Virus record (IMG/VR): IMGVR_UViG_3300044568_003939
Reading direction: 5' to 3' (one strand)
Origin: a virus
Length of the DNA: 64,000 nucleotides
Shown here: positions 46,632 to 48,435 of the stretch, one piece after another
Layout: every line of letters starts with the position of its first letter
Numbering within the stretch: the first letter of the stretch is position 1
Position numbers and translations under genes: made by a program
The notes under the pieces: model-generated
Databases searched by the model: none
What the model was told of the DNA's origin: nothing
Seen by the model: only the letters and a program-made list of their open reading frames with translations

Positions 46632-46834
46632 ATACTCATCGAGTTGCCGTCGCATCATTAGTCTGTATAGTTTTAGCTTTCATCATTAAAGGCTATTACA
46701 TATTGCAACAAGTTGCAGCTGCAAATCAAACAGCGTTTGATTGTGAAGTGGAAACACTCAAACAGTTTTTATATTTGTTTAGTGTATTTGTAGCTGTAAT
46801 AGTATGGCCGTTCGTTTTTAAAATTAAAGTATAA
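46628..46834 (+). CDS. Small two-TM membrane protein
   Basis: Two hydrophobic segments; ATGA overlap. Confidence 0.55.
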   Translation: MNTHRVAVASLVCIVLAFIIKGYYILQQVAAANQTAFDCEVETLKQFLYLFSVFVAVIVWPFVFKIKV

Positions 46835-46843
46835 ATATAACAT

Positions 46844-47116
46844 ATGAGTATTCCAAGTGTAAGTAATGCAAGAGTTTTTGATAGTGCAATGACATATGAA
46901 GTTCCAGCTTATACCAGTGGCTATCATGTTAGTACAAGTCATGCTAGTAAATTTTTCAAAGGGCTTTTAATTAGCACGGATGGCAACCTTAAGATTATGG
47001 GTTGTGATGGCGTTGAAGTTACCTTCGCTGTGACCGCTGGGTTGTATCCATTTGCTGGCATGAAGCTGGGTACTGCTGCCACATCACCTGCTACGGTTGC
47101 TGTAATACTATACTAA
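46844..47116 (+). CDS. Head spike base protein (RcGTA Rcc01079-like)
   Basis: KGLLISTDGNLKIMGCDGVEVTFAVTAGLYP...T.....VILY resembles the family pattern as recalled; TATAAATA at 46830-46837. Confidence 0.62.
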   Translation: MSIPSVSNARVFDSAMTYEVPAYTSGYHVSTSHASKFFKGLLISTDGNLKIMGCDGVEVTFAVTAGLYPFAGMKLGTAATSPATVAVILY

Positions 47117-47122
47117 TTGCAT

Positions 47123-48151
47123 ATGTTAGGCATAGGAATCAACCTTTGGGGTAATATAAAAGACCCATACGGTCTATCCCTAGACTTACAGTTCGCCACC
47201 GACAAAACGCTGACGGCTCGCAAGGGTCCGACTCCGGTGTTGACCCGCGCATCTACTGCTACCTTTATTGGGAGTGACGGCTTAATCCAATCTGCTGCTA
47301 TTAACCAAGCCCGCTTCGACCACGATCCAGCAACCCCCAGCGTCTGTCGTGGTCTGCTTCTTGAGGAACAACGCACCAACCTGCTGTATCCAAGCAGTAT
47401 TGCCGTCCCCCAACTTGCCACGCAAACAAGATCACTCGTCTCATCTACCGTCTACACGTTGAGTTTCTACGGGACTGGCACGGTGGTAGTGTCTGGGAAG
47501 GCTACTGGTGCGCCATATACCATAGTTGGAACAGGGGCTTATCCGTCCCGAAGAATATTTTCTTTTACTGCGATTGGAGGGAACGTCACTTTTACCGTTT
47601 CTGGAATCGTGCAATACGCACAGCTTGAACAGAGCTCAGGCGGGACAGCATCTAGCTTTATCCAGACAACCAGCGGACCTCTCGCCCGTAGCGCGGATGT
47701 TTGCAGTATTATCGGAGCGGACTTCACGAGCTTTTGGAACAGGTTCGCTGGCACCTGCGTGGTCGGAGTCGGCTCATCTGGGGCGTCAGTGAACGGCTTC
47801 GCTAACACCTTTGTTTGCACGTCGCCTTCAGCCCGCACATTTGCCATATTCGGGTCAACGGCCATATATTTTGCGCCACCACCACCACCTGATTTCACCG
47901 GAACAATCGTTGCGTCGGGAGCCACTTACCCGATAAAACTTGGATTGGCTTACGCAATCAATGACTATCAAAGTTCATACAGTGGGCTTCTTGGTGATTC
48001 CGGCACAAATACGAACGGGACTATTCCAGACTCTACCGACTTGCGTATAGGCTACGATAATAGCGGGGCCTTTGGCACAAAGCACATTCAATTTGTCCGC
48101 TACTACAAGAAACGCCTGCCCAACGCCAAACTCCAAGCCATCACTGCATGA
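47123..48151 (+). CDS. Head spike fibre protein (RcGTA Rcc01080-like)
   Basis: N-terminal MLGIGINL; LTRASTATF...ARFDHDP...RGLLLEEQRTN; YAQLE...SSFIQT...RSAD; elevated GC. Confidence 0.72.
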   Translation: MLGIGINLWGNIKDPYGLSLDLQFATDKTLTARKGPTPVLTRASTATFIGSDGLIQSAAINQARFDHDPATPSVCRGLLLEEQRTNLLYPSSIAVPQLATQTRSLVSSTVYTLSFYGTGTVVVSGKATGAPYTIVGTGAYPSRRIFSFTAIGGNVTFTVSGIVQYAQLEQSSGGTASSFIQTTSGPLARSADVCSIIGADFTSFWNRFAGTCVVGVGSSGASVNGFANTFVCTSPSARTFAIFGSTAIYFAPPPPPDFTGTIVASGATYPIKLGLAYAINDYQSSYSGLLGDSGTNTNGTIPDSTDLRIGYDNSGAFGTKHIQFVRYYKKRLPNAKLQAITA

Positions 48152-48435
48152 CCGACTACATTCTAAAATTCGCATCAAAAGCAATAGCCGAGCAGTTCGG
48201 CATCGCCAATGGGTTTGCTGCGCCTGATGATAACGGCGAGGTGCAATCCAATCTTGCGTCACACGAACACGCGCTGTGCGTTGTGGGCGAGTTTGCCGGA
48301 GAGTGGTGGGTGCTATTCCGTGATCTTGTCGGAATCCCGATTCCGGTAGGCGGCGAGCAGTTCGTCCACTGGTCAAGCGCATCGGGCGATCCCCGCCCAG
48401 TTGACGAGTCCGTCCCGAATATCTGGTGGGCATAA
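48148..48435 (+). CDS. Fibre partner/chaperone, paralogue of 45713
   Basis: MTDYILKF...ALCVVGE...WVLFRDL...VPNIWWA. Confidence 0.7.
   Translation: MTDYILKFASKAIAEQFGIANGFAAPDDNGEVQSNLASHEHALCVVGEFAGEWWVLFRDLVGIPIPVGGEQFVHWSSASGDPRPVDESVPNIWWA

Follow-up and report, generated by a model that had tools for sequence, protein, structure and literature searches.

A candidate gene-transfer-agent-type head spike with an exchangeable fibre cassette in an uncultured T4-like phage

In the DNA of IMG/VR virus record IMGVR_UViG_3300044568_003939 (a stretch of 64,000 nucleotides, here called the window), three short genes precede the neck gene gp13. A preliminary description, made from the letters alone, proposed that they encode the base, the fibre and a small partner of a head spike like that of the Rhodobacter capsulatus gene transfer agent (RcGTA), which binds capsular polysaccharide. 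The question raised by this locus is whether a T4-like phage could display such a receptor-binding spike on its capsid. The RcGTA head spike is built from Rcc01079 (GhsA) and Rcc01080 (GhsB) (PDB 6TB9, 6TBA, 6TSU and 6TUI; Bardy et al. 2020, PMC7296036; Hynes et al. 2016, PMC5026251). Its features as given in the preliminary description, a pentamer of Rcc01079 and one subunit of Rcc01080 with an N-terminal strand, are borne out by the published work, in which residues 2-10 of Rcc01080 (IALGLGLGL) form a five-point star, with a single Rcc01080 subunit to the Rcc01079 pentamer (PMC7296036). Homologues of rcc01080 in cyanophages were noted by Hynes et al. (PMC5026251). RcGTA-type head spikes have been solved only on the gene transfer agent, and among papers naming either protein our literature search found no T4-like phage with a spike of the Rcc01079/Rcc01080 type.

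All three ORFs were recovered on the plus strand where they had first been placed (Table 1). The genes 3′ of the cassette encode gp13, gp14, gp15, gp16 and a split gp17, as recognised by Pfam matches on their orthologues, and from its sequence the source is an uncultured T4-like myovirus. Among isolates, no capsid protein is more than about 56% identical to that of this phage; the top matches come from Methylophilales phage Melnitz and Pelagibacter phage HTVC008M. Relatives among isolates were sought in 50,697 phage records by megablast of the region and by tblastn of P0001 and of the bases of two other loci (L020 and L021; L numbers denote the loci compared), with no match. The large terminase of this phage is spread over two ORFs with a GIY-YIG/NUMOD3 nuclease part (window 51580-54551; Pfam, orthologues).

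P0001, the proposed base, is predicted to be almost all beta and is preceded at 46830 by a T4-type late promoter motif, TATAAATA, in keeping with its earlier description as a late-promoted beta protein of 90 aa. The window contains 20 copies of the motif where 8.1 are expected, and 0 of 100 shuffles reached 20; 18 of the 20 copies are on the plus strand, mostly just 5′ of starts and several with the same 6-nt spacing. P0002 lies directly 3′ of P0001 on the same strand, after a gap of 6 nt from which the promoter motif is absent, and so reproduces the RcGTA order of base then fibre that had been pointed out. It begins MLGIGINLW at 47123, the start that had been read as MLGIGINL. An in-frame TTG at 47117, upstream of this ATG, is an unlikely start because the homologues in L008, L015 and L023 begin at the same ATG as P0002. 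Since no copy of TATAAATA lies between that at 46830 and the next one at 48438, 5′ of gp13, the three genes appear to form a single late unit, as judged from the motif alone.

The end of TATAAATA is found 6 nt 5′ of an ATG at several late genes (motif end/ATG at 46304/46311, 46837/46844, 48445/48452, 49229/49236 and 36727/36734), a spacing that would leave the late mRNAs of this phage with little or no leader. Just 5′ of the base, at 46297-46834, two small membrane proteins (106 and 68 aa) are encoded with their own TATAAATA. The 106-aa protein, which may be holin-like or an assembly factor, is conserved: even L020 and L022, distant T4-like loci, have it (105-107 aa) 5′ of their bases. On the minus strand, a lone 64-aa ORF (46090-46284) lies amid the plus-strand late genes, and L001, L003 and L008 have a minus-strand gene call of 58 aa at the corresponding place.

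Table 1. Features of the candidate spike locus and its neighbours (positions in the window).
Feature	Positions	Strand	Remarks
T4-type late promoter motif TATAAATA	46830-46837	+	exact; 6 nt 5′ of the P0001 ATG
P0001, 90 aa, divergent Rcc01079-family spike base (small jellyroll)	46844-47116	+	
Fibre codons 1-17 (MLGIGINLWGNIKDPYG), putative backbone-encoded plug or adaptor peptide	47123-47173	+	GC, homology border and retention before different bodies
P0002, 342 aa, fibre: Rcc01080-like N-proximal module and putative ConA/LamG-like C-terminal domain	47123-48151	+	
P0003, 95 aa, fibre partner	48148-48435	+	ATGA overlap with the P0002 stop
gp13 neck protein, right border of the variable slot	48452-49198	+	orthologues with PF26809 Phage_T4_gp13
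P0004 (647-aa fibre) and P0005 (126-aa partner), paralogous pair, outside the spike	43773-46093	+	
P0186, 683 aa, third paralogous fibre, long anchor type	41699-43750	+	motif blocks matched by eye

Searched alone against PDB, P0001 found Rcc01079 at E 1.2, in an alignment of nearly full length. Against the NCBIfam model NF048002 (spike_base) it scored 14.1 bits (E 0.042) and, because this is below the equivalog cut-off of 28 bits, it was classed as a divergent relative of the family and not as an equivalog. The orthologue P0017, 66% identical and at the same locus position, reached 28.4 bits against the cut-off of 28. In L020 and L022, T4-like loci at a greater distance, the bases scored 27.5 and 28.6 bits, respectively, that of L020 being encoded directly 5′ of gp13. 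With a profile of 16 close homologues (A1), 33 proteins were retrieved from 1.8 billion, almost all of them 77-122 aa long. NF048002 was matched by 30 of 36 aligned members of the P0001 family, the best at 5.7e-13, and a widened profile (A3) matched Rcc01079 in PDB (chain 6tb9_E3) at E 1.1e-4. In the latter search a SCPU-domain chain, 8cio, stood slightly above Rcc01079, only over about 49 residues.

The fold of P0001 was compared through its AF2 model (pLDDT 89). Rcc01079 was the top Foldseek match among 350,542 PDB chains (TM 0.59/0.63) and was also the top match in VIA, with 81 of 84 residues aligned at an rmsd of 4.0 and a Z of 7.2, where a Z below 8 is not compelling alone. The second VIA match was the small chain h of the Carin-1 phage capsid entry 8cjz (Z 5.6), and the remaining matches were at 4.4 or lower. 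With these profile and fold matches, the proposed resemblance of the 90-aa protein to Rcc01079 stands, and homology of P0001, as a remote relative, to the RcGTA spike base is well supported. The comparison with the RcGTA spike proteins that had been suggested at the outset was thus positive for the base, by profile and by Foldseek, and for the fibre, by profile (see below).

By analogy with RcGTA, P0001 would form a pentamer on the capsid vertices. The most conserved part of P0001 is its N-terminal 21 residues, and the invariant E19 of the family pairs with Glu12 of Rcc01079 in two HMMER alignments, both weak; Glu12 coordinates a cation with the capsid protein (PMC7296036). An alternative is that the jellyroll of P0001 has been reused in a tail-fibre or neck component, as a knob or an adaptor ring of other symmetry from which the fibre hangs. 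The gene does adjoin the neck genes gp13 and gp14, P0001 weakly matches PHROG 12296, labelled tail fiber protein, and the rcc01079 homologue of phage RcapNL was annotated as a tail fibre (PMC5026251). However, such tail-fibre labels are older than the RcGTA structure, and the only solved relative of P0001 is a capsid-vertex pentamer. Moreover, the second fold match comes from a phage capsid entry, and it is the N-terminal arm, keeping a Glu aligned with the capsid-contacting Glu12, that is most conserved. We consider the reuse of P0001 in a tail or neck part improbable, and retain the vertex pentamer as the likelier reading of the base.

The family of P0002 numbers more than 2,368 proteins, with a length of about 335 aa, that are conserved in their N-terminal half and variable in the C-terminal one. 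The family profile (A2) matched Rcc01080 at E 8.5e-9 over two blocks, in agreement with the kinship first proposed for the fibre; P0002 itself gave no match to NCBIfam NF048003 (GTA_spike_fiber) at E ≤ 1. Proteins annotated as tail fibres in RcapMu, T1-like and T5-like phages also have the Rcc01080-like blocks, as do two paralogues within the window, P0004 (which matches NF048003 at 1.2e-45) and P0186. The P0004/P0005 pair and P0186 have a different, long N-terminal anchor. Because the Rcc01080-like module is common to annotated tail fibres, it appears as a mark of phage fibres and is no indication of a location on the head.

The AF2 model of P0002 is of low confidence (pLDDT 58, with residues 1-86 below 50). 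Apart from helices at 198-204 and 334-341 it is almost entirely beta, and it contains no coiled coil. Foldseek of this low-confidence model returned CBM40, LamG and pentraxin folds, a hint only, and PF13385 is present in some members of the family; on the model, the C-terminal part of P0002 looks like a ConA/LamG lectin fold. At window positions 47873-47887, P0002 has a run of five Pro and the otherwise identical P0021 has four, a length-variable proline tract.

P0002 and P0003 might be an ordinary receptor-binding fibre of the tail, baseplate or neck and its chaperone, placed in a recombination hot spot 5′ of gp13, with P0001 a coincidental neighbour serving as an independent, fibreless capsid decoration or cement protein. 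The PHROG families matched by P0002 are labelled tail proteins, and its two paralogues in the window have a long, tail-fibre-like anchor. Most of its more than 2,368 relatives lie in podovirus-like contigs of 37-40 kb, just after an adaptor-like gene. Furthermore, the slot between base and gp13 is what we take to be the position of wac (neck whiskers) in the T4 gene order, just 5′ of gene 13, and in many sister phages the base has no adjacent fibre.

This slot differs from one sister phage to another. It is empty in about half of the relatives (L001-L004, L016, L018, L025-L027 and L029), and since in these the base is followed directly by gp13, P0001 would therefore not need the P0002 fibre. 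P0002-type fibres of varying length occupy the slot in L008, L015 and L023. Unrelated bodies are found in L017 (276 aa, with its own 103-aa partner) and, as a third type, in L024. The L017-type fibre and partner recur in L021, a podovirus-like contig, where a base scoring 37.7 bits lies about 2 kb away and the fibre starts MQPLVLGLGVGIGIGG.

The bodies in the slot have similar beginnings. The three unrelated types start MLGIGINLW/MFGVGINVW, MISLGLKLAV and MLGIGLKHTL. In P0002, the docking strand like that of Rcc01080 claimed in the preliminary description is there in so far as hydrophobic residues alternate (L2, I4, I6 and L8, followed by W9); the match is incomplete in their number, four and not five. 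Five are present in the L017 fibre (I2, L4, L6, L8 and V10) and five or six in the L021 fibre. When ORFs of at least 80 aa were counted over all loci compared (n = 266), the strict alternating N-terminal pattern was found in only 4, and all 4 are the ORF right after a base gene. A plug-type start is retained before different bodies in L008, L015, L023 and L024, and remnants of one are seen in L017 and L028. In L017 a broken copy of the MLG...INLW start lies in the intergenic space (5617-5665), upstream of a different fibre cassette; this copy is interrupted by a GC-rich palindrome-like insert. In L028 the interval between base and gp13 holds only a 33-codon ORF (1800-1901) starting MLAVGLKHT, which is either what a deletion has left of a fibre or a stand-alone plug peptide. 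By analogy with the solved strand, we infer that the first ~17 residues of P0002 act as a plug that would dock one fibre into the base.

Composition and homology divide P0002 at the end of this plug. GC3 is 0.52 in the fibre after codon 17 and 0.62 in the partner, and is 0.28-0.36 in the base, gp13, gp23 and the paralogous fibres; fibre codons 1-17 have a backbone-like GC of 0.39. DNA homology to the high-GC contigs L005, L009 and L014 (51-62% GC) extends from 47171-47178, which is codon 17-19 of the fibre and just after the plug, to the end of the partner. Homology to the cassette-less L016 breaks off shortly after the base stop, within the first few bases of the fibre gene. In addition, P0022 has a body 84% identical to that of P0002 and the start MIIFPHARGS, as in the non-T4-like locus L009. 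On the basis of GC3, the homology borders and the N-terminus of P0022, we assign the plug to the phage backbone and the body and partner to a cassette. The fibre body after codon 17, together with the partner, is a recent import from higher-GC phages.

A recent import could be a passenger that virions do not, or do not yet, incorporate, as would suit its strongly foreign composition and a slot that is often empty in relatives. Both ORFs are nevertheless intact, translationally coupled and inside the late unit. The cassette is also found at 87% DNA identity in L008, and the join is exactly in frame after the plug. We hold an unassembled passenger to be very improbable.

In two non-T4 contexts, P0002-type fibres (MII[LF]PHARGS) come after proteins with a common C-terminal beta domain of ~95 aa (L005 5033-6004, L009 4609-5004), which in L005 is preceded by a collagen-like GAT repeat. 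These proteins may be a different socket for the P0002-type body. An 82-aa beta-rich protein of L014 (17-265), encoded directly 5′ of a fibre starting MPLGLGNNLI, was considered as a base and set aside, as it had no detectable similarity to the spike base.

The partner P0003 is a paralogue of P0005 (E 2e-18). A P0003-type partner is downstream of every P0002-type body examined, and the partner of the other fibre type (L017/L021) is unrelated to it. Pfam and NCBIfam gave no family name for P0003; PHROG matched only P0005, to a family of unknown function, and in the Atlas P0003 fell only in unnamed viral clusters. A search for longer fused forms found none, which is weak evidence, and no RcGTA counterpart is known. 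Because P0003 is linked to the fibre body and not to the virion backbone, we tentatively regard it as a probable chaperone, acting in the folding or assembly of its own fibre.

Taken together, docking of P0002 on the base is favoured because of the gene order, the backbone-specific plug like the solved one and the reuse of this plug by three unrelated bodies, and because base and plug co-occur independently in another phage type. Weighing against docking are the count of four alternating hydrophobic residues in P0002 where Rcc01080 has five, a base that often stands alone, a fibre module in common with tail fibres and a slot at the presumed wac position. An ordinary tail, baseplate or neck fibre next to P0001 by coincidence is harder to reconcile with an Rcc01080-like plug that is common to three unrelated slot bodies, appears nowhere else among 266 ORFs, and is backbone-encoded and retained through body swaps. 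It also sits poorly with the same body having other N-termini in other backbones, and with an unrelated fibre whose plug-like start is again near a base, in a podovirus-like contig. We regard that alternative as unlikely.

The reading that we favour, with moderate confidence, is a head spike of the RcGTA type. Here P0001 pentamers would be seated on the capsid vertices of the T4-like phage, and P0002 would be a chimera, in which the backbone plug docks one fibre into the base and the rest is an imported cassette. Through its lectin-like C-terminal domain, P0002 would let the head bind a surface polysaccharide reversibly ahead of tail engagement, and P0003, which moves with the fibre body, may help the folding or assembly of that body. 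The capsid location, the pentamer, the docking and the glycan binding are each what we infer from the RcGTA analogy.

A broader scheme is possible, and is put forward only tentatively. In this T4-like clade the base may be a universal socket and the 10-17 residues before a fixed boundary a plug, behind which unrelated bodies with their helper genes are recombined in frame or lost. The same body could then move between the head (in myoviruses) and the tail (in podoviruses) merely by a swap of its first ~17 residues.

If the head-spike reading is right, a large uncultured T4-like clade would adsorb by the head as well as by the tail, and would alter the specificity of the head through cassette exchange behind a fixed plug. 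There would also be a simple rule to spot head-displayed receptor-binding proteins in metagenomes, and a natural plug-and-socket pair for protein display on capsids.

Among known systems, the slot of the cassette is presumably that of T4 wac (fibritin), just 5′ of gene 13, yet fibritin is a long trimeric coiled coil and the P0002 model is nearly all beta. T4 also has Hoc, a dispensable head protein with a presumed part in adhesion. In Pfam, PHROG and NCBIfam scans, P0002 showed no sequence relation to wac, Hoc or Soc.

The fibre and partner have close counterparts in the podovirus-like contigs L005-L007 and L009 (37-40 kb, with SU10-type capsid and portal), where the body is 45-84% identical and is followed by a partner of 95-106 aa. 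In contrast to P0002, the N-terminal 16-17 residues there are different (MKYALGNMLN..., MII[LF]PHARGS...), and upstream of these fibres no Rcc01079-type gene was detectable. In such contigs the P0002-type fibre is probably a tail fibre.

RcGTA itself has a small HK97-type head, whereas the module described here is carried by a lytic T4-like myovirus (about 180 kb) whose capsid is of the gp23 type. Its base has diverged far from Rcc01079 (about 18-22% identity in structural alignments) and is often without an adjacent fibre, the plug of P0002 has four alternating hydrophobic residues where Rcc01080 has five, and the fibre body and the partner, a third gene, form an imported, exchangeable cassette. 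What the two systems share is a base gene of about 85-90 aa with the fibre gene directly after it, a common base fold (Z 7.2) along with homology that profiles can detect, a fibre start in which Leu/Ile alternate with small residues and, in P0002 as in Rcc01080, the TRAS...RFD and AQLE...R.AD blocks.
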